From an uncultured Candidatus Saccharibacteria bacterium (GTDB lineage Bacteria; Patescibacteriota; Minisyncoccia; Phycocordibacterales; UBA5272): a stretch of DNA of 64,000 nucleotides. The stretch lies in assembly GCA_964621595.1 (NCBI GenBank), contig CAZUPO010000001.1:14758-78757 (forward strand), read 5' to 3'. Shown here in pieces: positions 4,564 to 62,119 of this stretch (positions are counted from its first letter, which is position 1; the number at the start of each line of letters is the position of its first letter). The position numbers were made by a program, and so were the translations under genes. The notes beneath the pieces were generated by a model. The model searched no databases, was not told where the DNA came from, and saw only the letters and a program-made list of their open reading frames with translations.

Positions 4564-7500
4564 CTATTTAACGGTGACAGAATCGCGTACTACATAAGTA
4601 CCACGACAAGTGAGTGTATATGTTTTTCCGGTGACACTACTATAGAGACCGACATCTTCTGATCCAGTAGTATTCTTACCATTAGACCACGCGCCACTTG
4701 CCATACAAGACTTTAGATTCTCACCAGTCCAGGACAGAATAACTCTTCGTTTTCCATCTACCATTTTTGTGGAGTAGTTTAATGTAACAGCAGGATTCTT
4801 GTTTGTGTCTTTTGTTAACACAGTCTCAACAGCAGAAGAAATTGATTTTACCGGTGAGGCAATTGCGCCAAGTGCTTTATCTTTTAGAGCAGTGGCGGCA
4901 CGAACACCGTAATTCTTTGTGTCAAAACGAATTTCGCGAGATATCTCCCCGCCTGGTCCTCCACAGGTTAGTTTGAATCCTTGGGTTCCACCAACCTTAT
5001 CGACAGCATATGAACCTGATGTTTCCTGTGCACCGGACCATGAACCTGACGCCTTACACCAAAGTGCGTTCGTCGTTTCCCAGAGGAGTGACACTGGCTT
5101 TCCATATTGAATGATGTGAGGAGTTGCTACAAAGGAAAGTGTTGGCGGTGGAGAGTCTGAGAAATTAACCTCAACAAAACTTGAGATAGATCCCCCGTCG
5201 CCGGTACACGAGAGTACATAGTTTTTACTTCCTGTTATTGGTTGCGTAGTAAAGGTACCCGCAACATTCTTTACACCGTCCCAATCACCAGAAGCATCAC
5301 AAGATGAAACGTTTTCCGCTTTCCAAACAAGAGTAATTGGTTTATTTGGCGTAATCTTACTCTCCTGCATAGAGAATCGTAATTTTGGCTGTGGGGGCGG
5401 GTTCGTAGAAACAACCTCACGTCTAGGAGATCTAATTGTTTGAATAACAATGACTGGTTGCTCAGCGTTTATTGTTATAGGTAATGGTACAGATGGATCA
5501 CGATCGGGTATCACATTTTGTTGAGTAATTGTTTGTCGTACAGTCTCCAATATCTGAGGCACCGCAACTGTCTGTTCTTGTGCTACCGTTGCAACCGAAG
5601 TTGTATTCGAAACCGCTTCTCCTGAGGTAGTAACTGCGGCTGTAGAGAAAGTTTCTGCTGGTACAACCTGTGGAGCAACTGAAATACCGACCGATTGAGT
5701 TATTTCGCCTCCATCACCTGTACACGTAAGAAGATATGATTTGTCACTGGTGAGTGAATTTACTTGCTGTTCTCCTGCAAGACCTCTATTTACCGTCACC
5801 CAATCACCCCCAGAACTATAACACTCTGTTGCATTTCTTGCCCTCCATGAAAGAGTTGCTGTGCCACCATAAGAAACCGCATTCTCAGATGAACTAAAAG
5901 TAAGCGTCGGTGGTACTTTTCTAATTATTTCTACAGCCGTTACAGCTGGTGCCTGGTTTACAGTAATAATAGCTGACTGACTAGCCTTTCCACCGGGGCC
6001 CGTGCATTCAATTGTATATGTTGTATTTGCGCGCGGAGACACTGTTTGTGTATCAGATGTCGATGTTTTATCTGTCCATGGAGCACTACACGCCGTTGTG
6101 TTAGTGGAAGACCACGTGAGTATACTAGATTGCCCTTCAGTAATAGTTGTCTGTGATGAATCCAAACTCACTTGTGGTAATGGTTTAGTTTCTGCAACTA
6201 CCTGTGGAGCAGAAACAGTTACGGTAATTGCCTGCTCACCCCTTCCCCCTTCTCCAGTACACGAAATTCTATACGTGGTAGTTGTAGATGGCGAAACTGT
6301 CTCTGATCCAGATATAGCCGAATTATTTCCCCATGATGACGTACACGTCGTCGCGTTAGTAGAACTCCAAGATAACCTTGTGCTTTGCCCTTGGGTAAGG
6401 GTCGAGGGAGACGCATCGAGTGTGACCGTTGCTGGTTGAGCAACTTGGACTACCGGGGCTGGACCTACAGCGATATTTACAGAATCTCGTGCTTCTCCAC
6501 CAACTCCTGAACAAGTAATTGTAAATACAGAACTTTCAGTAAGTGGAGGTGTTGTAAAAGAGGAAACAGTGGCAACTGGACCCGTTCTCCATGAACCTGT
6601 ACATGAATCCGCGGCTGTGGAAGACCAGTTAAGCACCGTTGCTGTGTTGTATGTTAGATTATTTGATCTTGAAGTCAATGAAACTGTTGGTACAGGTGGA
6701 GGCGGTGCCACAGTGATGGTGATAGATTTTTTTGTTTCTTGTCCGGCAGCATTATAACAACTAATAGTGAATCTTTTATCTTGGACCAATCTAGGAAGAT
6801 CTTCTTGGCCCGATAGTGACTTATTACCAGACCAATCGTCACTTGCTACACATCGTGTAGCGTTCCCGGAGGACCAATACAGGGTTGCTGGTGAATTATA
6901 TGGGAGACTATTTCCCGAAGAAGAAAAATCTATTGTTGCTACTGGCGTTGTACATGTGCTTGCAGTATTCACCCAACTCCCCCAGACAGGCTGACCATAT
7001 GAATCGGGACATGTACTCGTGCGCGTCTGGGTTACAGTACCATTCTGACCCGTTGGACATGAGATGGTCTGCTGTTCTGAAGATGTTCTACATGTGGGAG
7101 TTGGGGTAACGCATGTGTTTGTAGTATTCACCCAACCGCCCCAGACAGGCTGACCGTATGGATCAGGGCATGTACTCGTACGTGTCTGTGTTATAGAGCC
7201 TGTTTGCCCAGTTGGACAAGACACAGTCTGGTTTTCTGACGATGTCCTGCACGTGGGAGTTGCTGGTGCGTCGTTCATGGTCACAAACGCAGACTCTTCT
7301 GGTAACCATGTCCCCACAGGATTTACGTTATAACAACTAAGCACAAAGAATGGTTTTGTAAACGTACTTTTTGCAGGAAGATTTCTAATGACTTCTGTTC
7401 CACTTACTGGTTTGTACCCGGAAGACCATAATCCAACTGGGACACTTCTTCCGTAACAACTATTCCCCTGAAAGACACCAACATTTTTTGCATCCCAAGA

Positions 7501-8400
7501 AAGAGTAACGCTACCACCAGCGTCTGCTGTAGTCGGGGTAACAGAGATACTAATAGTTGGTGTACCTGCTGTTGCTGTAAGACTAGTATCAGCCGCCGCC
7601 GTAGTGGTAACAGGAACTTGTGAAGGAAAATAATTTTCAACATCTGCATAACTTGGCTGTAAATCTCCGTTATAACAAGTAACCCTAAGAGTAAACGATG
7701 CTATTCCGTAATATGCAGGTACGGTTGATAGAACTTTGGACCCAGTACCACACTGACTACTGGTACATAAATAGCCAAGACCTGCTGGCACACCAGGTCT
7801 TCCTAAAGTACAGTAGAGTGCATTTGTTGTGTTCCAGTTTATTGTTGTTTTTACCCCATCTTGATTGGGTAAACTTGGAAACAAGTTGGGGACACTAGTA
7901 TATGTCTTGGAAAGCGTCACCGTTGCTGCTGGACCTGATGCGGGCGGACTAGAGACTGTTTGAGTACCGAAGTAATTTGTTGCTGTGGTAATTGTTCTCA
8001 CTTTGACATTCTGTTGTTGCCCTGTCATTGCCCAAAAGATCACCTTGTACGAAGAAGCACTACCTATTTGAAACGTTGTTGAATACGTATTTCCACTACG
8101 CCACACCGTCCTCTGAACACCAGAATCAAGTAACGCTTGGGGATTATTAAAATTTGGATTATCGGAATCAAAGATACTGAAATACCCAACATCTGGCGGA
8201 AGTTGCGCAGAAGTGTCCACACTCACCGTTATCGTTGAACCAGGAGCAGCAGATGTTGGTGTAGGAGACACGAAGTTAAATGGCACTGTTCCGGTCTGGA
8301 GTGGAGAGAGGGTAACACCTTGTGCATTAACAAGAAAACAAGAGGAGAATATTCCTAGAAATATCCCTACAAAAAGACTTCTGCGTATGTGCTGTGACAT
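4564..8400 (-). CDS. Giant secreted/cell-surface protein (1278 aa), Thr/Ser-rich with Cys-containing Ig-like repeats
   Basis: Signal peptide (…FLVNAQG). Repeated L.WSS.NA..C modules. Two tandem 53-aa Cys-rich repeats (TPTCRTSSE.QT.SCPTGQ…) encoded by ~159-bp tandem DNA repeats near 6955-7275. Confidence 0.8.
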   Translation of the reverse strand: MSQHIRRSLFVGIFLGIFSSCFLVNAQGVTLSPLQTGTVPFNFVSPTPTSAAPGSTITVSVDTSAQLPPDVGYFSIFDSDNPNFNNPQALLDSGVQRTVWRSGNTYSTTFQIGSASSYKVIFWAMTGQQQNVKVRTITTATNYFGTQTVSSPPASGPAATVTLSKTYTSVPNLFPSLPNQDGVKTTINWNTTNALYCTLGRPGVPAGLGYLCTSSQCGTGSKVLSTVPAYYGIASFTLRVTCYNGDLQPSYADVENYFPSQVPVTTTAAADTSLTATAGTPTISISVTPTTADAGGSVTLSWDAKNVGVFQGNSCYGRSVPVGLWSSGYKPVSGTEVIRNLPAKSTFTKPFFVLSCYNVNPVGTWLPEESAFVTMNDAPATPTCRTSSENQTVSCPTGQTGSITQTRTSTCPDPYGQPVWGGWVNTTNTCVTPTPTCRTSSEQQTISCPTGQNGTVTQTRTSTCPDSYGQPVWGSWVNTASTCTTPVATIDFSSSGNSLPYNSPATLYWSSGNATRCVASDDWSGNKSLSGQEDLPRLVQDKRFTISCYNAAGQETKKSITITVAPPPPVPTVSLTSRSNNLTYNTATVLNWSSTAADSCTGSWRTGPVATVSSFTTPPLTESSVFTITCSGVGGEARDSVNIAVGPAPVVQVAQPATVTLDASPSTLTQGQSTRLSWSSTNATTCTSSWGNNSAISGSETVSPSTTTTYRISCTGEGGRGEQAITVTVSAPQVVAETKPLPQVSLDSSQTTITEGQSSILTWSSTNTTACSAPWTDKTSTSDTQTVSPRANTTYTIECTGPGGKASQSAIITVNQAPAVTAVEIIRKVPPTLTFSSSENAVSYGGTATLSWRARNATECYSSGGDWVTVNRGLAGEQQVNSLTSDKSYLLTCTGDGGEITQSVGISVAPQVVPAETFSTAAVTTSGEAVSNTTSVATVAQEQTVAVPQILETVRQTITQQNVIPDRDPSVPLPITINAEQPVIVIQTIRSPRREVVSTNPPPQPKLRFSMQESKITPNKPITLVWKAENVSSCDASGDWDGVKNVAGTFTTQPITGSKNYVLSCTGDGGSISSFVEVNFSDSPPPTLSFVATPHIIQYGKPVSLLWETTNALWCKASGSWSGAQETSGSYAVDKVGGTQGFKLTCGGPGGEISREIRFDTKNYGVRAATALKDKALGAIASPVKSISSAVETVLTKDTNKNPAVTLNYSTKMVDGKRRVILSWTGENLKSCMASGAWSNGKNTTGSEDVGLYSSVTGKTYTLTCRGTYVVRDSVTVK

Positions 8401-8453: not shown

Positions 8454-9593
8454 TTATGCACGCACGTCATCGTACGGCACAAATGTGCAACTCACTTTCT
8501 TCCCCTTGTATTCCCGTACAATAACTTCTAGTTCTGCAGCAACATCTTTTTCAGTAGTTAGTTTTTCATTTTTTAAAAAACCATACTGCACACTACCAGA
8601 CTCTGTTTTTATAGTTATCACCCCACGTTGTTTCATAGTAACAATAGACTTTAGAAGACCTTTTTCAGTATCGGAGGTTTGCAATGAATCAATAATTGAA
8701 AAACAAGAATCGACGGAACGTTCGTAACGATACAGAGCATTCATCCAATCAAGGACTCTGTCGACGGGTAACCCACCCTGCAGAACCTTCTTCAATCGGC
8801 CTTGAAAATCTCTTTGGTATTTATCACTAAAGAGATTATGCACATTGTTTCCTGATAAAGCAGCATCAAATGCTTGTGCCACTTGACTATATACCATCTT
8901 GTGATCGTGAACAAATGAATCTAATTCGTCAACTTGTTGACTGTATTGCACCTCTTCATTCTCATCAGGAACATTTGCTTCGCTCTCTTGCTCAGTACTA
9001 GGGGTAGCAATTTTTCTTATTACAATAGACTTAAGGGCAGAGTCTTCTTTTAAACATACATGAATAACATCTCGCAATTCTTTCACGAATTCCTTTTTCA
9101 TTTTAAGTCTGTTGGTGGTCAGGAGAACAACGGGTAATGAAAAAATTCTTGTTGTTCCGTCAGCAAAAGTTGCTTTAATATTTGAAGAAATTGGGGTTTT
9201 AACAAGGTTAATAAGCGCTTCCTTCTCTTCATTTCTTACATTGAGAAAAGCAATCTCTCCTACTAACCCCTGATAACTCGAAACTTCTACCCGTTCAATT
9301 TTTTTGAGAAGTTCCTCCAACGTCTCTCGTTGTACACCGTGTTCAATCGCCGCTTTAATTTCTTGTATACAATTCTGTAAACGTTTATCTAAAGAAGTTA
9401 TCTTTGCATCAGTGTCTTCGGCGATATGCAGTGCGAGAGAAAATTCTTCCGACGATACGTCATGCTGCCATACGAACGTTTCGAGTGCTCGCATTTTTTC
9501 TTTTTCGTTATTGTGAGTTAGTTTCTCTGGTGGTCCTTCTCTGTCCATATAGTTCTTAGAAAAGATTGTACTAGTAAACGAAAATTTCTCCAA
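8454..9593 (-). CDS. Hypothetical protein
   Basis: Long AT-rich ORF, acidic and coiled-coil-like; no recognisable motif. Confidence 0.55.
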   Translation of the reverse strand: MEKFSFTSTIFSKNYMDREGPPEKLTHNNEKEKMRALETFVWQHDVSSEEFSLALHIAEDTDAKITSLDKRLQNCIQEIKAAIEHGVQRETLEELLKKIERVEVSSYQGLVGEIAFLNVRNEEKEALINLVKTPISSNIKATFADGTTRIFSLPVVLLTTNRLKMKKEFVKELRDVIHVCLKEDSALKSIVIRKIATPSTEQESEANVPDENEEVQYSQQVDELDSFVHDHKMVYSQVAQAFDAALSGNNVHNLFSDKYQRDFQGRLKKVLQGGLPVDRVLDWMNALYRYERSVDSCFSIIDSLQTSDTEKGLLKSIVTMKQRGVITIKTESGSVQYGFLKNEKLTTEKDVAAELEVIVREYKGKKVSCTFVPYDDVRA

Positions 9594-41580: not shown

Positions 41581-42996
41581 TTACTTATAGTTGTTTCTTT
41601 TGTGTTCAATATAATCAACGAGCAATTCATAAAATAAACTCTCGTCTCTAACATCTTCTGCCTTTACAAAAGAATTTTCAAAAGTATCCCATTCAATTAG
41701 ATATTTTTTCCAATAGAATGATTTTTCTGGTCTTTCTGGTTTTAGCGATTTAAGCATAGCCGTTATATAAGGCTTGAACGGCATTCTCTCTTGTGTTCTT
41801 CGTGGTGATTCTTTGATGATAGAAATGACTTTTAGGAAGCCTTTTATGTCTGTAAAGCTTAATATTGCGACCCGGATAGCAATATTAAAATACATTTCAA
41901 ATTCATCAGTTCTCAAGTTTTGAATATTAAATCCACCCTTTTTTAACTCTAGGAATTGAAACCGAGTAGGCTTAAGCAACCCTCGAAGTGTCAACGCCTG
42001 ACTTTCAACTGCACGAACAAAAATATGTTCAAGAAACAATTTAATATATCCTCCCTCCCCAATAGCACTTATCATTTGAGGATTTTCATTTTTTATACTT
42101 TTAACTATTTCTTCAACAGTATCTACCACAGCTTGCTGGTTATCGAAGCGATACGGAGCAATAGTAAAAAACTTATTCACGTAACCTGAAAAGTCCGTCT
42201 CAACGCCATACTTGTGATGAAATATGTGCTCAAGATTTGCGTAATCTGCGACAACGATTATGATATCGAACCCAAACCTATTCTCATTTTCTCGTTCAAA
42301 AAAGGCAGAGAGGAGATTTAGCACCCTAAATATATGCTCTGGATCTACCCTGTCTAAATCATCCAAAATAAGAACACTTTTCTTTATGCCTTTTTGTTGT
42401 GAAATTTTTTCTTTTACCAGATTGCTAACATAATCCGGCTCAGTAATATTCTTAGATTTTATTTCAGCAGTATATTTTTCTATTAGGCCTTTATCACCTG
42501 CCTTATATTCTGTCTTAAACTCCTGAAAATCCTTATCGAGATCTAGTAAGTCTTTCAACGGTCTGCCTAATTTTGCTAAAACACTGGTTATTGGATCGGC
42601 AGACAACGAGGCAACATCTTCACCTCCTGAAATAATTTTCTGAAGAACATCGTTTACTGTATATCTATCTTTTATCCACGACCAAAATAGTAGAGACGAT
42701 TCTTTGATCCCGTTCACAGATTTTTCTTCAAAAATATCTTTATTCTTTTTTAGAAGCTCGATAATGACATCGTATTTAAGGAGACCCACAATATCATCAT
42801 TAGCACTAATTTGATAGTTTATTGGATACAAATGAAAGGCTTCATATGAATCATGATTTTCTTTGAAAAACTCATTGAGAAAATGTGTCTTTCCTGCACC
42901 AAACTTACCTGAAAATAGAATTCGAGAATTTTCTTCCATTGAAAGAAACTCACTGAAATCTTTCTTTGCGGTATCAATTGGTATTTTAATAGCCAT
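41581..42996 (-). CDS. KAP-family P-loop NTPase
   Basis: Walker A GKFGAGKTHFL and the KAP-specific Walker B VLILDDLDRVDP; 471 aa. Confidence 0.75.
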   Translation of the reverse strand: MAIKIPIDTAKKDFSEFLSMEENSRILFSGKFGAGKTHFLNEFFKENHDSYEAFHLYPINYQISANDDIVGLLKYDVIIELLKKNKDIFEEKSVNGIKESSLLFWSWIKDRYTVNDVLQKIISGGEDVASLSADPITSVLAKLGRPLKDLLDLDKDFQEFKTEYKAGDKGLIEKYTAEIKSKNITEPDYVSNLVKEKISQQKGIKKSVLILDDLDRVDPEHIFRVLNLLSAFFERENENRFGFDIIIVVADYANLEHIFHHKYGVETDFSGYVNKFFTIAPYRFDNQQAVVDTVEEIVKSIKNENPQMISAIGEGGYIKLFLEHIFVRAVESQALTLRGLLKPTRFQFLELKKGGFNIQNLRTDEFEMYFNIAIRVAILSFTDIKGFLKVISIIKESPRRTQERMPFKPYITAMLKSLKPERPEKSFYWKKYLIEWDTFENSFVKAEDVRDESLFYELLVDYIEHKRNNYK

Positions 42997-56539: not shown

Positions 56540-57001
56540 TTAATGAAGATTTGTCTCTTCAAACATATCCCCCTTTCGCATTACCGCAAAGTTACCAGCG
56601 CGAACCCAGGTAGGTGTGATCTTTATAAATAACATCTTACTGCCTTCCATTTGCGCAACCGGAGGAATGGCACTATGTTCTGTTGCTCGTTTAATAAGTT
56701 TTGAAAAGTAAGCATTCTCTTCGTGGGCATCTGTTACCATCTGAGCAGTACCTTCGAATTGAATGGTTTTAGGCGGATTCTCCTCTGTAACGACGAAGGC
56801 GACGTGGGGGTTAGCAAGAATGTTTTCATATTTTTTGCTCCCTTCACGTGCAAGAAAATATAGATTCAATTGTTCATCTGCAATATAAAACACCGATGTG
56901 GCATGTGGTACACCGTCTTTGGAAATTGTAGCAAGAACACCAAGGGGCTGATTAAGAGTTTCTATTTCATTAAAAATTGTTTGGGTGGTTATAGCCATAT
57001 A
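56540..57001 (-). CDS. Pyridoxamine 5'-phosphate oxidase-like FMN-binding split-barrel protein
   Basis: Pattern typical of the family; start taken at MAITTQ to avoid overlap with eno. Confidence 0.6.
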   Translation of the reverse strand, partial: YMAITTQTIFNEIETLNQPLGVLATISKDGVPHATSVFYIADEQLNLYFLAREGSKKYENILANPHVAFVVTEENPPKTIQFEGTAQMVTDAHEENAYFSKLIKRATEHSAIPPVAQMEGSKMLFIKITPTWVRAGNFAVMRKGDMFEETNLH

Positions 57002-57029
57002 TGCTTTATAGTGTACTTTGTTTCTTGGT

Positions 57030-58304
57030 CTATTGTCCAGGAAAAAATGGTCGTGAATATGCAGGCACTTCCTCAGAAATGCGAAGTAATTCATTGTACT
57101 TCGCAAGTCGCTCAGTACGTGATAGAGATCCAGTTTTTATCTGGCCAGCACCGGAGGCCACTGCGATGTGTGCAATAGTAACATCCTCTGTCTCTCCAGA
57201 GCGATGTGAGATGATTGTTCGAAATCCATTACTGTGGGCAAGTTCTATCGCATCAACCGTCTCCGAAAGAGTGCCAATTTGATTTACTTTTATAAGAACA
57301 GCATTTCCTGCGTGCTCTTCGATACCTTTTTTGATATATGTTGTATTTGTAACAAAAAGATCATCCCCGACGAGTTGCGTTGTAGTTCCGAGTACGCTAG
57401 TTAATTTTTTCCAACCCTCCCAATCATCCTCACTCAAACCGTCTTCGATTGATACGATAGGAAAATGATCACGAAGTTTTTTTAGATACTCAATCATCTC
57501 ATCGCTTGTATACGAAACACCATCACAAGCAAGTGTATACATACCACCCTCATAAAACTCGCTTGAAGCAGCATCGAGAGCAAACACAATGTCTTCTCCT
57601 GGGTTAAGACCCGCCTCTTTCACAGCACGGGTAAGCATGATGAGTGCTTCACGGTTACTGATAGCACCAACAATCGGGAATCCTCCCTCGTCCCCTACGC
57701 CACTTACACCACGCTTATGCATAATCTCACGAAGTCGATAGAAGACTTTTGTGAGTTGCTCTAGCGCTAGTGGAAATGTCTCTGCGCGAACGGGAACAAT
57801 CATCCATTCTTGGATATCCGTAGAGTGTGGCGCGTGCTTGCCTCCATTTAAGACATTAACAAGCGGGGTTGGCAGTGAAGGCTCTTTCTGGAATGTAAAA
57901 TCTTGGCGCAAGGATTGATAAAGAGGGATATTCCTTTGGGAAGCAATTGCTTTTGCTACAGCAAGAGACAAAACAAGGAGAGTGTTTGCTCCGAGCCGGG
58001 ACTTGTTAGGAGTGCCATCTAGTTGAAGCAAGTGCATATCAAACTCTCGCTGAGAAGCAAATTCTCGGGAGATAACACTTGGAATAACTTCATTACGAAG
58101 ATAGGTAAGCGCAGTCTCAACACCCTTTCCATCAAACTTCTCACCACCATCTCGTAATTCAAGCGCTTCTCTCGAGCCAGTAGATGCGCCGGAGGGAACA
58201 CTCGCACGCCCTGTACCCCCTCCTAGAAGAGTGACATCAACCTCAAGCGTTGGGTATCCGCGAGAATCAAATATCATACGAGGTGTTACGTGCTCTAGTT
58301 TCAT
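57030..58304 (-). CDS. eno: Enolase
   Basis: Canonical enolase motifs (SIEDGLSEDDWEGW, metal ligands). Confidence 0.95.
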   Translation of the reverse strand: MKLEHVTPRMIFDSRGYPTLEVDVTLLGGGTGRASVPSGASTGSREALELRDGGEKFDGKGVETALTYLRNEVIPSVISREFASQREFDMHLLQLDGTPNKSRLGANTLLVLSLAVAKAIASQRNIPLYQSLRQDFTFQKEPSLPTPLVNVLNGGKHAPHSTDIQEWMIVPVRAETFPLALEQLTKVFYRLREIMHKRGVSGVGDEGGFPIVGAISNREALIMLTRAVKEAGLNPGEDIVFALDAASSEFYEGGMYTLACDGVSYTSDEMIEYLKKLRDHFPIVSIEDGLSEDDWEGWKKLTSVLGTTTQLVGDDLFVTNTTYIKKGIEEHAGNAVLIKVNQIGTLSETVDAIELAHSNGFRTIISHRSGETEDVTIAHIAVASGAGQIKTGSLSRTERLAKYNELLRISEEVPAYSRPFFPGQ

Positions 58305-58343
58305 ATCTATAAGTATATATCACAATTACAAAATCACCTTAGC

Positions 58344-60023
58344 GTGATACACTTATCTACTATAGATATGACTCGTTTATATTTTTATGACATTCAAGAG
58401 GCAGAAAAAGAGCCGCTCCAGAGATCTCTCACACACCTAGAACCCGTATATATAGAGCAACCGATACGTTTGGACCTTGTTCATGAAGATGCAGAAATTG
58501 TGTCGCTCTTTGTTTCAAGCACTCTCACAAGAGAAATGATCGACAAGATGCCAAATTTAAAACTAGTCGTCACACGCTCTACTGGATTTGATCACATTGA
58601 TATACAAGCACTGAGTGAACGCACCATCCCAGTACTCAATGTACCAAGTTACGGCGAACACACCGTTGCAGAATACGGATTTGGATTACTCCTTGGTCTT
58701 ACTAGAAAAATTCCGATCGCAACTAAAATGACGCGAGAAAACGTGTGTGTACCTCCAGAGGAGGTACGTGGTGTTGATCTTTCCGGAAAAACTCTTGGGG
58801 TTGTTGGCGCTGGAAGAATCGGTAGAAAAATGATTGCTATGGGAAGAGGTTTTGGTATGAATGTGCTCGCATATGACCCGCACGAGGACGCCGCTTCTGC
58901 TACATCGCTTGGTTTCCGTTACGCCCCACTTGAAGAAGTTCTAAGAGCTTCTGATGTTATTAGTCTTCACATGCCAGCAACGCCAGAAAATCATCACATG
59001 ATTTCGCGTGATGTTTTGCAACATGTCGTGAAAAAAGGAGTTTACATCATTAATACCGCTCGTGGTGAACTTATCGATACTGAGGCTCTCATAGAAGCAC
59101 TTCAGGGTGGAATTGTTGCGGGTGCCGGACTCGATGTGTGTGAAGGAGAAGAGTTACTTAAACGTCGTTGTTCGATAGAAGTCTTTAATGCAGCTAACAG
59201 TACTGAATTATTGAAAGAGTCGGCACATATTTCTATATTGAAGAGTCTTCCTAATGTACTTCTTACACCTCACATCGCATATGACACTGTAGAGGCGCTC
59301 GGTAGAATTTGTGATACAACCGCCTCCAACATACAATCATTTTTGCAAGGCACAATCGTCAATCAAGTAAAATCTGGAGTAAAACCGTTTGGGAAACTTA
59401 TTCTCATTCGTCACGCAGAGTCAGAATGGAATGCTCAGGGTATGTGGACTGGTACACGAGACAAACATCTTACCGACAAAGGATTCCAAGATGCCCGAGT
59501 GCTGGGTACCATTATTGAAGATATCCATATCGATCATGCTTTTGCGTCGACACAACTACGTACAATCGAAACACTGTCTTCTATCTTGGGGACTATGCAC
59601 CAACTGACGGTTCCAATATCTCGAGATTCGTCACTCAATGAACGCGACTATGGTGACTATACCGGAAAAAATAAACATGAGATGAAAGAAATCCTTGGTG
59701 AAGAACAATTTGAAAAAGTTCGACGAGGATGGAATGTGCCTATTCCAAACGGTGAGACGTTAGAGATGGTCTATAACCGTACAGTACCCTACTACCAGTC
59801 TAGTATTGTGCCACGCTTACAGAAGGGAGAAAATGTTCTCATTGTGTCTCATGGAAATGCTTTACGTGCTCTTATGAAATATATTGAATCGCTTTCGGAT
59901 GAACAGATAGAGCATACCGAGATGATGTTTGGCGGTGCTGTCGTCTATACCGTTAATGAGCAAGGTCTGATGACTCACAAAGAAACTCGCGAGACCCCCT
60001 CCCTCTCATACGATCATGTTTAA
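58344..60023 (+). CDS. Fusion protein: D-isomer-specific 2-hydroxyacid dehydrogenase (PGDH-like) + 2,3-bisphosphoglycerate-dependent phosphoglycerate mutase (GpmA)
   Basis: N-terminal GVVGAGRIGRKM Rossmann region plus catalytic R/E/H; C-terminal LILIRHAESEWN and downstream dPGM motifs from ~59360; one uninterrupted 559-aa frame. Confidence 0.8.
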   Translation: MIHLSTIDMTRLYFYDIQEAEKEPLQRSLTHLEPVYIEQPIRLDLVHEDAEIVSLFVSSTLTREMIDKMPNLKLVVTRSTGFDHIDIQALSERTIPVLNVPSYGEHTVAEYGFGLLLGLTRKIPIATKMTRENVCVPPEEVRGVDLSGKTLGVVGAGRIGRKMIAMGRGFGMNVLAYDPHEDAASATSLGFRYAPLEEVLRASDVISLHMPATPENHHMISRDVLQHVVKKGVYIINTARGELIDTEALIEALQGGIVAGAGLDVCEGEELLKRRCSIEVFNAANSTELLKESAHISILKSLPNVLLTPHIAYDTVEALGRICDTTASNIQSFLQGTIVNQVKSGVKPFGKLILIRHAESEWNAQGMWTGTRDKHLTDKGFQDARVLGTIIEDIHIDHAFASTQLRTIETLSSILGTMHQLTVPISRDSSLNERDYGDYTGKNKHEMKEILGEEQFEKVRRGWNVPIPNGETLEMVYNRTVPYYQSSIVPRLQKGENVLIVSHGNALRALMKYIESLSDEQIEHTEMMFGGAVVYTVNEQGLMTHKETRETPSLSYDHV

Positions 60024-61044
60024 GGTACTTACACATACACCCGAGGTTATAGCAACAATAGGACCAAGTTCTGAAAGTGAAGAAGTGCTTCGTACTATGC
60101 TTTCGAATGGGTTACGTATTGGTCGTTTTAATTTTAGTCACGGTGATTACGAAACACAAAAAAAGCGAGTGGATCTTTTCCTTTCACTTGCACAAGAAGG
60201 GTCTATACCCCATCTTGTATTCGCAGATCTTTCTGGACCAAAAGTCCGTGTAGGCAAATTAGAGAATGGCTCTGTCGAACTTCTTGTTGGCGCTTCGTTT
60301 AGTCTCACAACCAAGGAAATCGTTGGCTCAGCGATCTGTGCACATGTCACGTACGCACATTTTACAAAAGGTATCCAAGCAGGAATGAAAATCCTTCTGG
60401 ATGATGGCAGAATTGAACTGGTGGTAGAAAATGTTACCGAGGATACTGCTCAAACACGCGTGCTTCGTGGTGGAATGCTTCTTGAAGAAAAAGGAGTGAA
60501 TGTGCCCGAAGCGCTCTGGAGTCTCTCTTCGCTTACAGAAAAAGATCTTCAGGACCTATCATTTATCATGAATGAGAACTATCACGCAATCGCCCTTTCA
60601 TTTGTACGCTCAAAAGAAAACATCGAGGAAGCAAGGAAGTACATGCAAACCACATTTAATAAAACCTTGCCAATTATTACAAAGATAGAAACCAGGCAAG
60701 CGCTTCACAACTTAGAGACCATCATAGAAAGTTCGGACGTTGTCATGGTCGCTCGCGGAGACTTGGGAGTGGAGATTGGTCTCGAACATGTGCCGATGCA
60801 TCAGAAACGTATTTGTGAAGTTGCTTCTCGCTACAACAAGCCTGTGATCGTAGCAACACAACTGCTTGAATCTATGGTGGAGTCACCGACACCTACACGG
60901 GCAGAGGTGAGCGATGTCGTAAACGCGATACTTGATGGCGCATCATACATTATGCTTTCTGATGAAACAACCACAGGTAAATACCCTATTGAGGCCGTCT
61001 CAACGCTTTCTACTATTATCAAAGACTACAACGCAACTGTGTAA
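60016..61044 (+). CDS. pyk: Pyruvate kinase, short form lacking the C-terminal regulatory domain
   Basis: MVARGDLGVEIG, KPVIVATQLLESM motifs; 342 aa; 8-nt overlap with the upstream gene. Confidence 0.85.
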   Translation: MFKVLTHTPEVIATIGPSSESEEVLRTMLSNGLRIGRFNFSHGDYETQKKRVDLFLSLAQEGSIPHLVFADLSGPKVRVGKLENGSVELLVGASFSLTTKEIVGSAICAHVTYAHFTKGIQAGMKILLDDGRIELVVENVTEDTAQTRVLRGGMLLEEKGVNVPEALWSLSSLTEKDLQDLSFIMNENYHAIALSFVRSKENIEEARKYMQTTFNKTLPIITKIETRQALHNLETIIESSDVVMVARGDLGVEIGLEHVPMHQKRICEVASRYNKPVIVATQLLESMVESPTPTRAEVSDVVNAILDGASYIMLSDETTTGKYPIEAVSTLSTIIKDYNATV

Positions 61045-61050
61045 ATTATC

Positions 61051-62016
61051 TTATCGAGTGAAGGTAAATGTCTTTGCTATGTCTCCTGCTGTTGTGTAGT
61101 AACCGCTGAGCGCTGCCTCACTTAATCCTGGCTTCATGGTGTCATCTTTGTATGTTGATTGATGGCGTATCTGCTCAATAACGTAACACATATTATTGTG
61201 AACGGTACGATAACTTTCTCCCTTCATCATTTTCATCATTCCCGCATCCTCAAAACTAAAGCGCTTGAACGTCACACCGTTAATACTTACGTTAAGAATT
61301 TTTTGTGATGTATACCCAGGATCCATGGAGTAACACTCTTGTACATTTGGACTAACTCCAACGCGTGTCTCCGCTACGTAAAATAGTGGATAATTCTTTC
61401 CAGAGGATACGGTTCCCTGATCAATTCGATATACTGGGAACGACACGACGACTTTACCTTGATTATTAAGTGCTGCATTTATTCTCCAGTTACTTGCTAC
61501 ATCGTAAAAGGTTGTGAAGTATGGCTGTGAAGTTACTGTAGCTGGAAATCTCATCGAAAATCCATACTCACTATTTGCATAACTGCGAGGAAACGATGAT
61601 TTGGTGGCAGTCTTTTGTGATGGCCCAGTACTAGATGAAGAACTTTTTGTAGTGGTGGTAGCTACGGTGCTCGTAACCGCACTCTGGTCGGATGGCGTGG
61701 TGCAGTTTGAATATGTTGTACTTGATCCTTCCGTGAGCCATGCAGTGTCGCCCTTATTCCAAAACACAACACTCTCGTCTTTGTTTCCATAACGAGCACC
61801 GGAGGCAGACACAAGATGGGCAAGTGCCATAACGCGCCCATCACTTAGCCGAAGAGAAACTTTTTCATCATCTTTAGGATAAAATGTCGCCCGGATAGTA
61901 GAACTCCCTTCACAAGAAAATAAGTATGTTTGTTTCTCTTGTTTAATAAAAAATGCCCATACTAAAATAAGAATTCCGACGCCTACAAGAAATGCTTTTG
62001 AAGTGACAATTTTCAT
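61051..62016 (-). CDS. Membrane-anchored protein with an N-terminal MliC-like (lysozyme-inhibitor fold) domain and a Thr/Ser-rich linker
   Basis: C…Y…V.L……SGA.Y……FW.KG……C pattern; start taken at MKIVTSK. Confidence 0.5.
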   Translation of the reverse strand: MKIVTSKAFLVGVGILILVWAFFIKQEKQTYLFSCEGSSTIRATFYPKDDEKVSLRLSDGRVMALAHLVSASGARYGNKDESVVFWNKGDTAWLTEGSSTTYSNCTTPSDQSAVTSTVATTTTKSSSSSTGPSQKTATKSSFPRSYANSEYGFSMRFPATVTSQPYFTTFYDVASNWRINAALNNQGKVVVSFPVYRIDQGTVSSGKNYPLFYVAETRVGVSPNVQECYSMDPGYTSQKILNVSINGVTFKRFSFEDAGMMKMMKGESYRTVHNNMCYVIEQIRHQSTYKDDTMKPGLSEAALSGYYTTAGDIAKTFTFTR

Positions 62017-62119
62017 ATATGGTGTATATAACAAGTGTATCACTGGGGTATGGTACCTGTATATAAGGGTATAAAAACCTTTGTTTTACATAGGTAACGT
62101 GTGGTATGCTTGAAATTAT

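Follow-up and report, generated by a model that had tools for sequence, protein, structure and literature searches.

Why would one open reading frame (ORF) in a Saccharibacteria genome encode both a 2-hydroxyacid dehydrogenase and a phosphoglycerate mutase (PGM), and do its two halves act on the same substrate? These questions are raised by a gene in a 64,000-nucleotide stretch from an uncultured Candidatus Saccharibacteria bacterium (assembly GCA_964621595.1, contig CAZUPO010000001.1, positions 14,758 to 78,757; hereafter the window). A first-pass annotation, made from the letters alone, had described this gene as a complete NAD-binding D-2-hydroxyacid dehydrogenase of the phosphoglycerate type fused in frame to a complete cofactor-dependent PGM (dPGM), inside a cluster of enolase (eno) and pyruvate kinase (pyk) genes. 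We find that the fusion is real and is widespread in the Saccharibacteria (TM7) lineage, with a dehydrogenase half that appears to be of the D-lactate dehydrogenase (D-LDH) type. We think it probable that the gene encodes a bifunctional D-LDH/dPGM, that it arose by loss of a stop codon within an operon, and that it places a step of glycolysis and a step of fermentation under 1:1 co-expression.

One reading frame for two enzymes

The ORF listing of the window gives 58344..60023 (+) as a single uninterrupted ORF of 559 aa with a GTG start. Pfam places 2-Hacid_dh (residues 16–340), enclosing 2-Hacid_dh_C (113–312, E 1.4e-52), in its N-terminal part and His_Phos_1 (352–537, E 3e-36) in its C-terminal part, each of the three matches covering nearly the complete profile, and the motifs GVVGAGRIGRK and LILIRHAESEWN are both found in it. 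The domain search that the first-pass annotation had recommended thus bears out its account of two complete enzymes joined in one continuous frame. Its other safeguard, a check for a stop codon or frameshift near 59340–59370, revealed neither in the window sequence, and no in-frame ATG, GTG or TTG lies at the dehydrogenase/mutase junction. Translation likely begins at the ATG at 58368 (551 aa, MTRLYFYD...) rather than at the GTG at 58344, because an identical protein called by JGI (P0001) has 551 aa and the family consensus opens MAxIYFYD; residue numbers for the fusion protein refer to this 551-aa version.

Relatives with the same architecture are abundant. A search of 5.8 billion proteins, of which the best 120 matches were considered, returned fused proteins in every case, so that this set of three Pfam domains occurs in at least 120 protein clusters (90% identity; from JGI, NCBI, ENA and Logan assemblies), in proteins of 534–574 aa that are 47–100% identical. 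When clustered at 50%, the fused family shrinks to a handful of representatives, and the next matches are stand-alone proteins of ~335 aa. Relatives are encoded on 547 stretches of the GTDB one-genome-per-species contigs; of the best 80 loci, which we examined, 53 have the fused gene, and almost every one of the 80 has Candidatus Saccharibacteria or Saccharimonadales in its title, the few exceptions bearing other Patescibacteria labels. The recommended look for the same fusion in related genomes was therefore amply rewarded, and the description of such a fusion as uncommon stands outside the lineage but fails within Saccharibacteria, where the fused form is the majority among those best loci. 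Certain relatives do hold both genes separately at the same junction, as would be expected if a missed stop codon, a frameshift or a chimeric assembly had merged two ordinary genes in the window. The chance of such an artefact is nevertheless negligible, and we exclude it because the same continuous frame recurs in at least 120 independent clusters; the length of the linker is also fixed across the family, the linker-spanning segment being 25 residues in 111 of the 124 fusion proteins over which all residue counts were taken, although its sequence is not conserved.

The C-terminal half can be identified by sequence as a short dPGM of the Schizosaccharomyces pombe type. Its score of 164 bits with TIGR01258, the curated model of the dPGM subfamily, exceeds the cutoff of 81.7, and its best PDB match, over the full length, is the 211-aa S. 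pombe PGM 1fzt (135 bits, or 195 with a profile), followed by the dPGMs of E. coli, yeast and human. The motifs RH..S.WN, NERDYG...G.NK, RRG, E and HGN are invariant in all 124 fusion proteins (Arg348, His349, Ser352, Asn355, Arg398, Glu425, Arg426, Tyr428, Lys436, Arg452, Arg453, Glu463, His495, Gly496 and Asn497), and these residues align with those of the S. pombe and E. coli dPGMs. The histidine-phosphatase superfamily does contain dPGM-like phosphatases, and the short form lacks the C-terminal tail and internal loop of 250-aa dPGMs, which would suit a PspA-like phosphoserine phosphatase or a PhoE-like broad phosphatase in place of a mutase. We give this only a slender chance: phosphatases score no more than 70 bits (PhoE 70, PspA 60) against 93–135 for dPGMs, with the top score going to the equally short S. 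pombe enzyme, the TIGR01258 cutoff is passed, the invariant NERDYG..G.NK, RRG and HGN residues are shared with dPGMs, and the domain sits with eno and pyk.

Subfamily of the dehydrogenase half

By PDB sequence ranking, a structure model and discriminating residues, the dehydrogenase half can be assigned to the LDHD subfamily of 2-hydroxyacid dehydrogenases (2HADHs). In phmmer searches its best PDB match is the Aquifex aeolicus D-LDH 3kb6 (209 bits, over the whole domain), and the second best is 1wwk, annotated as a phosphoglycerate dehydrogenase (PGDH; 186 bits with the single sequence). When a 60-sequence family profile was used instead, the top nine PDB matches were all D-LDHs, aligned end to end at 298–258 bits (Aquifex 298, Fusobacterium 294, Pseudomonas 275, E. 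coli 273). The first PGDH, again 1wwk, came in at 254 bits, with an alignment that extends only to residue 264, before the insert between the catalytic Glu and His. Likewise, the single-sequence alignment to 1wwk stops at residue 265 and resumes at 293, whereas solved D-LDHs align through this insert with just 7–9 residues of gaps. The spacing from Glu259 to His302 is kept in 119 of the 124 fusion proteins. An AlphaFold2 model has a mean pLDDT of 90.5, lower in the insert region (63–67), and in a Foldseek comparison of this predicted structure with the PDB each of the best 25 matches is a D-LDH chain, at target-normalised TM-scores of 0.76–0.86.

Residues that separate the subfamilies point the same way. 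SERA enzymes bind phosphate through an invariant Arg, part of an Arg-Ser motif on the beta3-alpha3 loop, while LDHD enzymes have there a Phe (Phe51 of E. coli LdhA) that keeps out any substrate larger than pyruvate, together with a Tyr at beta5-alphaA, a Phe or Tyr at betaG-alpha5 and an NADH-specifying Asp in the betaB-alphaD loop (PMC6303947). At the position of the SERA Arg, the VRS of 1wwk aligns to LFV in the window protein, and the Phe (Phe48) is present in 123 of 124 fusion proteins, as are Tyr95 (beta5-alphaA) and, in the same proportion, Phe/Tyr305 (betaG-alpha5); all three align with the same residues of the Aquifex and Pseudomonas aeruginosa D-LDHs. The Arg232/Glu259/His302 triad and the NADH-specifying Asp170 are found in all 124. 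The conservation of catalytic and motif residues in both halves argues for purifying selection on both active sites across the family.

NCBIfam models alone cannot decide the subfamily, which is why we relied on residue discriminators and PDB ranking. For the dehydrogenase half and for its nearest stand-alone relatives, the models for PGDH, glyoxylate reductase and VanH give similar scores, none of which reaches its cutoff. With the dehydrogenase half itself, TIGR01327 (PGDH) is the highest-scoring at 202 bits (cutoff 454), the glyoxylate reductase model gives 190 bits and PRK11790 (PGDH) 149 bits (cutoff 404). The label of a phosphoglycerate-type dehydrogenase, as first given, is not upheld, in view of the Phe in place of the SERA Arg, the shortfall against TIGR01327 and the D-LDHs that head the matches.

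Gene neighbourhood and relatives of the fusion

The placement of the fusion within an eno/pyk cluster, with enolase divergently adjacent and the start of a short pyk overlapped, was correctly described at the outset (Table 1). The pyk ATG overlaps the fusion stop by 8 nt (60016–60023, ATGTTTAA), and the same overlap is present in L003. The window pyruvate kinase (PK) retains the barrel and lid and lacks the whole ~130-aa C-terminal regulatory domain (PK_C), as alignment with the 476-aa full-length PK found in other Saccharibacteria of the same synteny (L001:14745–16175) makes clear. A consensus scan detected no sigma-70-like promoter in the 63 nt that separate eno from the ATG at 58368, and over 57900–61400 the promoter and terminator scan stood at chance level, with 7 found against 6.5 expected.

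Table 1. Coordinates, in window positions, of the fusion gene, its predicted domains and the flanking glycolytic genes
Feature	Position	Strand	Details
Longest ORF of the fusion gene	58344..60023	+	559 aa from GTG
Probable fusion coding sequence	58368..60023	+	551 aa, ATG; stop codon 60021–60023
Predicted D-lactate dehydrogenase (LDHD-type 2HADH) domain, residues 1–336	58368..59375	+	PDB, Foldseek, signature residues
Key codon, Phe48	58509–58511	+	
Key codon, Arg232	59061–59063	+	
Key codon, Glu259	59142–59144	+	
Key codon, His302	59271–59273	+	
Segment from catalytic Glu259 to His302	59142..59273	+	43 residues apart; holds the long LDHD-type insert
Inter-domain linker, residues 337–342 (GVKPFG)	59376..59393	+	Sequence variable, length fixed
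Predicted dPGM domain	59394..60020	+	TIGR01258, PDB 1fzt; phospho-acceptor His349 at 59412–59414
Enolase (eno)	57030..58304	-	Pfam Enolase_N and Enolase_C; TIGR01060 534.5 bits, cutoff 300; divergent from the fusion
Divergent intergenic region, eno to probable fusion start	58305..58367	.	63 nt
Short pyruvate kinase (pyk)	60016..61044	+	342 aa; Pfam PK 10–328, no PK_C; TIGR01064 402 bits, cutoff 306

Gene context was surveyed with phmmer at 84 loci. Where the gene is fused, enolase almost always lies divergently upstream of it. Downstream, the window's own clade (L003–L011) has the short pyk, and the other arrangement runs adk(-), ppdk, full-length pyk, pgk and tpi. At six main-clade loci (L054, L069, L070, L075, L076 and L078), ldh and pgm are two separate genes, adjacent and in unchanged order. 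Four of these have compact stop/start junctions, namely TAAATG (L054), ATGGGTAA (L070), ATGA (L075) and TAGacATG (L078); at L076, AAGGAG immediately precedes the stop codon. The two halves at L054 (4039–5688, from a Saccharimonadales metagenome-assembled genome) share one frame and are split only by TAA with ATG directly after it (gcaTAAatgaac); the locus either underwent fission very recently or differs from a fused one by a single base. A neighbour-joining tree of the dehydrogenase domain needs a minimum of 5 fused/split transitions in the main clade, and 3–5 over 59 bootstrap replicates, a count to be taken as a lower bound only; because the trees require 3–5 such transitions, the ldh/pgm junction is evolutionarily labile.

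A deep sister clade within Patescibacteria (L058–L064 and L068) has 2HADH, pgm, mini-pyk and eno on one strand. Its PGM is orthologous to the window mutase half (54–55% identity), and its PK (264–270 aa; for example L059:7455–8249) is without the lid (B) domain as well as without PK_C. At L060 (4965–6395) and L063 (792–2243), both ordered 2HADH / pgm-pyk / eno, and in protein P0162, the orthologous short dPGM is fused at its C-terminus to the minimal PK, giving 476–484 aa. The deep-clade 2HADH (L058, L059, L061, L064 and L068; for example L059:5851–6819) has no insert, is just 34% identical to the window dehydrogenase domain and finds its best matches, over the full length, in Pyrococcus glyoxylate/hydroxypyruvate reductases (286 bits). 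We dropped it as an ortholog of the window LDH domain and, because it is glyoxylate-reductase-like, make no claim that this LDH was part of an ancestral ldh-pgm-pyk-eno operon. Two 2HADH subfamilies thus occupy the same place beside pgm-pyk-eno, and the 2HADH–pgm linkage is therefore not tied to one of them. The data show that 2HADH, dPGM, PK and enolase travel together and that neighbouring members merge repeatedly.

Unusual architectures were seen in P0185, P0190 and P0241, and in P0126, among the nearest 2HADH relatives: one joins a 2HADH to a CHAD domain (619–634 aa), and another, of 929 aa, has an N-terminal His_Phos_1 followed by two 2HADH units.

Beyond the cluster, the 64-kb window has no second 2HADH or PGM copy and no other glycolytic genes. 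It is 43% G+C and holds ordinary chromosomal genes (an AcrB-type pump, an AddA-like helicase-nuclease, CysRS, DnaB, an M32 carboxypeptidase and MacB), and Rfam and tRNA scans of it returned a single, unrelated tRNA-Gln and nothing else. Convergent with pyk, with 6 nt between the gene ends, lies a gene at 61051–62043 (-) whose 330-aa product begins with a MliC (lysozyme-inhibitor) domain, followed by a Ser/Thr-rich stretch and a C-terminal half without assignment. On the other side, the longest ORF of a PNPOx-like protein (56540–57106 (-), TTG start) overlaps the eno 3' end by 77 nt, and its true start is probably an internal Met. Further away are a 471-aa KAP-family P-loop NTPase (41581–42996 (-)), of a family often found in defence or mobile contexts, and two adjacent genes, 4564–8400 (-) (1278 aa) and 8454–9593 (-) (379 aa), whose products have no Pfam match at E<=1e-5.

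Proposed function, alternatives and known parallels

From what is directly observed (the reading frame, the domain identities, two conserved active sites, the synteny, and the split and alternatively fused relatives), we infer the substrates, flux direction, oligomeric state and selective advantage of the fusion protein as follows. The dPGM domain would interconvert 3-phosphoglycerate (3-PG) and 2-phosphoglycerate (2-PG) through phospho-His349, and the divergent enolase and overlapping short PK would carry 2-PG to pyruvate. The LDHD-type domain would then reduce pyruvate to D-lactate with NADH, using Arg232, Glu259 and His302, with Asp170 specifying NADH, and so regenerate NAD+ for glyceraldehyde-3-phosphate dehydrogenase. 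PGM, enolase, PK and D-LDH are together predicted to make up a complete route from 3-PG to D-lactate encoded in the cluster. The fusion probably arose when the stop codon was lost between adjacent, translationally coupled operon genes, ldh and then pgm, which would leave a lower-glycolysis step and a redox-balancing step in obligatory 1:1 co-expression in a streamlined genome; for a very small genome, this fixed ratio is the likely benefit of the fusion. As the mutase and dehydrogenase reactions are three steps apart, we do not expect direct channelling of substrate. D-LDHs are dimers and S. pombe-type PGM is a monomer, which suggests a D-LDH-type dimer with two pendant PGM domains. A role in NAD+ regeneration fits the prediction that Saccharibacteria regenerate NAD+ through D-LDH (PMC6031116).

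Several points weigh against this explanation. No curated NCBIfam D-LDH cutoff is reached (PRK08605 148 of 356 bits, PRK12480 124 of 579, vanH_gen 186 of 540), so that the dehydrogenase half would be a divergent LDHD relative and an equivalog of no curated group, and LDHD enzymes are themselves promiscuous, taking hydroxypyruvate and glyoxylate as minor substrates (PMC6303947). The 2HADH beside the deep-clade pgm resembles glyoxylate/hydroxypyruvate reductases, not LDHD enzymes. Two D-LDH-related genes have been noted in TM7 genomes (Kantor 2013), and a stand-alone paralogue could therefore be the main fermentative enzyme. The pTM of the AlphaFold2 model is 0.66, which leaves the relative orientation of its two domains undefined.

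Two other identities for the dehydrogenase half would change the logic of the fusion. Were it a SerA-type PGDH, both halves would act on 3-PG and could partition it between serine synthesis and glycolysis, much as first proposed. The lead of TIGR01327 among the NCBIfam models and the second place of 1wwk among single-sequence PDB matches are in keeping with this, but the TIGR01327 score is less than half its cutoff, PGDH matches fail to align through the Glu–His insert, and neither serC nor serB is among the neighbouring genes, which at the window and related loci are eno, pyk, ppdk, pgk and tpi. We rejected a PGDH identity on the Arg-to-Phe position in particular, and consider the reading highly improbable. 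A common 3-PG substrate and 3-PG channelling or partitioning become unlikely with it, as the dehydrogenase appears to be LDHD-type and the two steps are not consecutive. The dehydrogenase might instead be a hydroxypyruvate/glyoxylate reductase (glycerate dehydrogenase) in a serine/glycerate catabolic module, in which D-glycerate, once phosphorylated, would enter the PGM/enolase/PK segment, and the dehydrogenase would not be a fermentative end step. The reductase-like 2HADH upstream of the orthologous deep-clade pgm-pyk-eno and the minor activities of LDHD enzymes lend this some support, but we judge it unlikely: the best matches of the window domain are pyruvate-reducing D-LDHs, Phe48, Tyr95 and Phe/Tyr305 would limit the pocket to pyruvate-sized substrates, and genes for a glycerate kinase or a serine/hydroxypyruvate aminotransferase are found neither in the window cluster nor in the deep-clade loci.

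A further idea takes the bifunctional D-LDH/dPGM one step on. Because repeated ldh/pgm fusion and fission and the alternative pgm-pyk fusion amount to a 'Rosetta stone' signal, D-LDH, dPGM, PK and perhaps enolase could form a physical lower-glycolysis complex in Saccharibacteria, with regulatory cross-talk between PGM and D-LDH. Through the fixed-length linker, PGM would be tied to the catalytic lobe of D-LDH, which is mobile, and occupancy by 3-PG, 2-PG or 2,3-bisphosphoglycerate might in this way modulate NAD+ regeneration, or the reverse. We regard this as a speculative and rather unlikely extension; if true, such cross-talk would be built in and would replace the allosteric control that disappeared along with the PK C-terminal domain.

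The gene is a new combination of two known enzymes; both halves come from well-known families and imply no new chemistry. No description of the fusion was found in the searchable full-text literature, which does not prove that it has never been described. Databases name one half only ('D-lactate dehydrogenase' at JGI, 'dPGM' at NCBI), and an automated reconstruction can in consequence overlook either the PGM of glycolysis or the LDH of fermentation and wrongly show a gap there. Where transcriptome studies of cultivated strains refer to a 'dPGM', the gene in question may likewise be a bifunctional one. In several experiments on Nanosynbacter lyticus TM7x, the expression of the dPGM-annotated TM7x_03065 ran counter to that of the other glycolytic genes, which puzzled the authors (PMC10768705); given how NCBI names these proteins, TM7x_03065 might be the bifunctional fusion, as an unconfirmed candidate. 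The fusion serves as a lineage-wide marker of Saccharibacteria central metabolism, its fused, split and alternatively fused forms provide a clean natural experiment on the merging of operon neighbours in streamlined genomes, and, together with the PK that lacks its C-terminal domain, it suggests that the 3-PG-to-lactate module of these epibionts is unusually compact and may be regulated in a different way.

Each half has well-characterized counterparts. Fermentative D-LDHs (3kb6, P. aeruginosa 5z20, Fusobacterium nucleatum 5z21 and E. coli LdhA 3wx0/5z1z) share with the window protein the fold (target-normalised TM-scores of 0.83–0.86), the Arg/Glu/His triad, the NADH-specifying Asp, the Phe, Tyr and Phe/Tyr signature and the long Glu–His insert. 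The window domain is, however, just 32–37% identical to them, its insert is ~7–9 residues longer, and it is followed by a C-terminal dPGM, for which the matched D-LDH chains (307–386 aa) are too short. The S. pombe dPGM 1fzt and the 206-aa model PRK01295 represent the same short form, without the ~25-residue loop and C-terminal tail, and all the catalytic motifs of 1fzt are shared with the window mutase half. Unlike the S. pombe enzyme, the window mutase is joined to a dehydrogenase, and at 178 bits against a PRK01295 cutoff of 316 it is no equivalog of that group.

As a fusion, the gene can be set beside two others. The PGM–PK protein of the sister clade involves an orthologous short dPGM from the same four-gene block, joined by its C-terminus to a minimal PK, whereas in the window the dPGM is joined by its N-terminus to the dehydrogenase. 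In Thermotoga maritima, phosphoglycerate kinase (PGK) and triosephosphate isomerase (TPI), two non-consecutive glycolytic enzymes from adjacent genes of one operon, are likewise fused, and both free PGK and the PGK–TPI fusion are made from a single locus. The enzymes of the window fusion are different ones and no internal start is evident in its gene; in contrast to the Thermotoga locus, Saccharibacteria lineages hold ldh and pgm either fused or separate.

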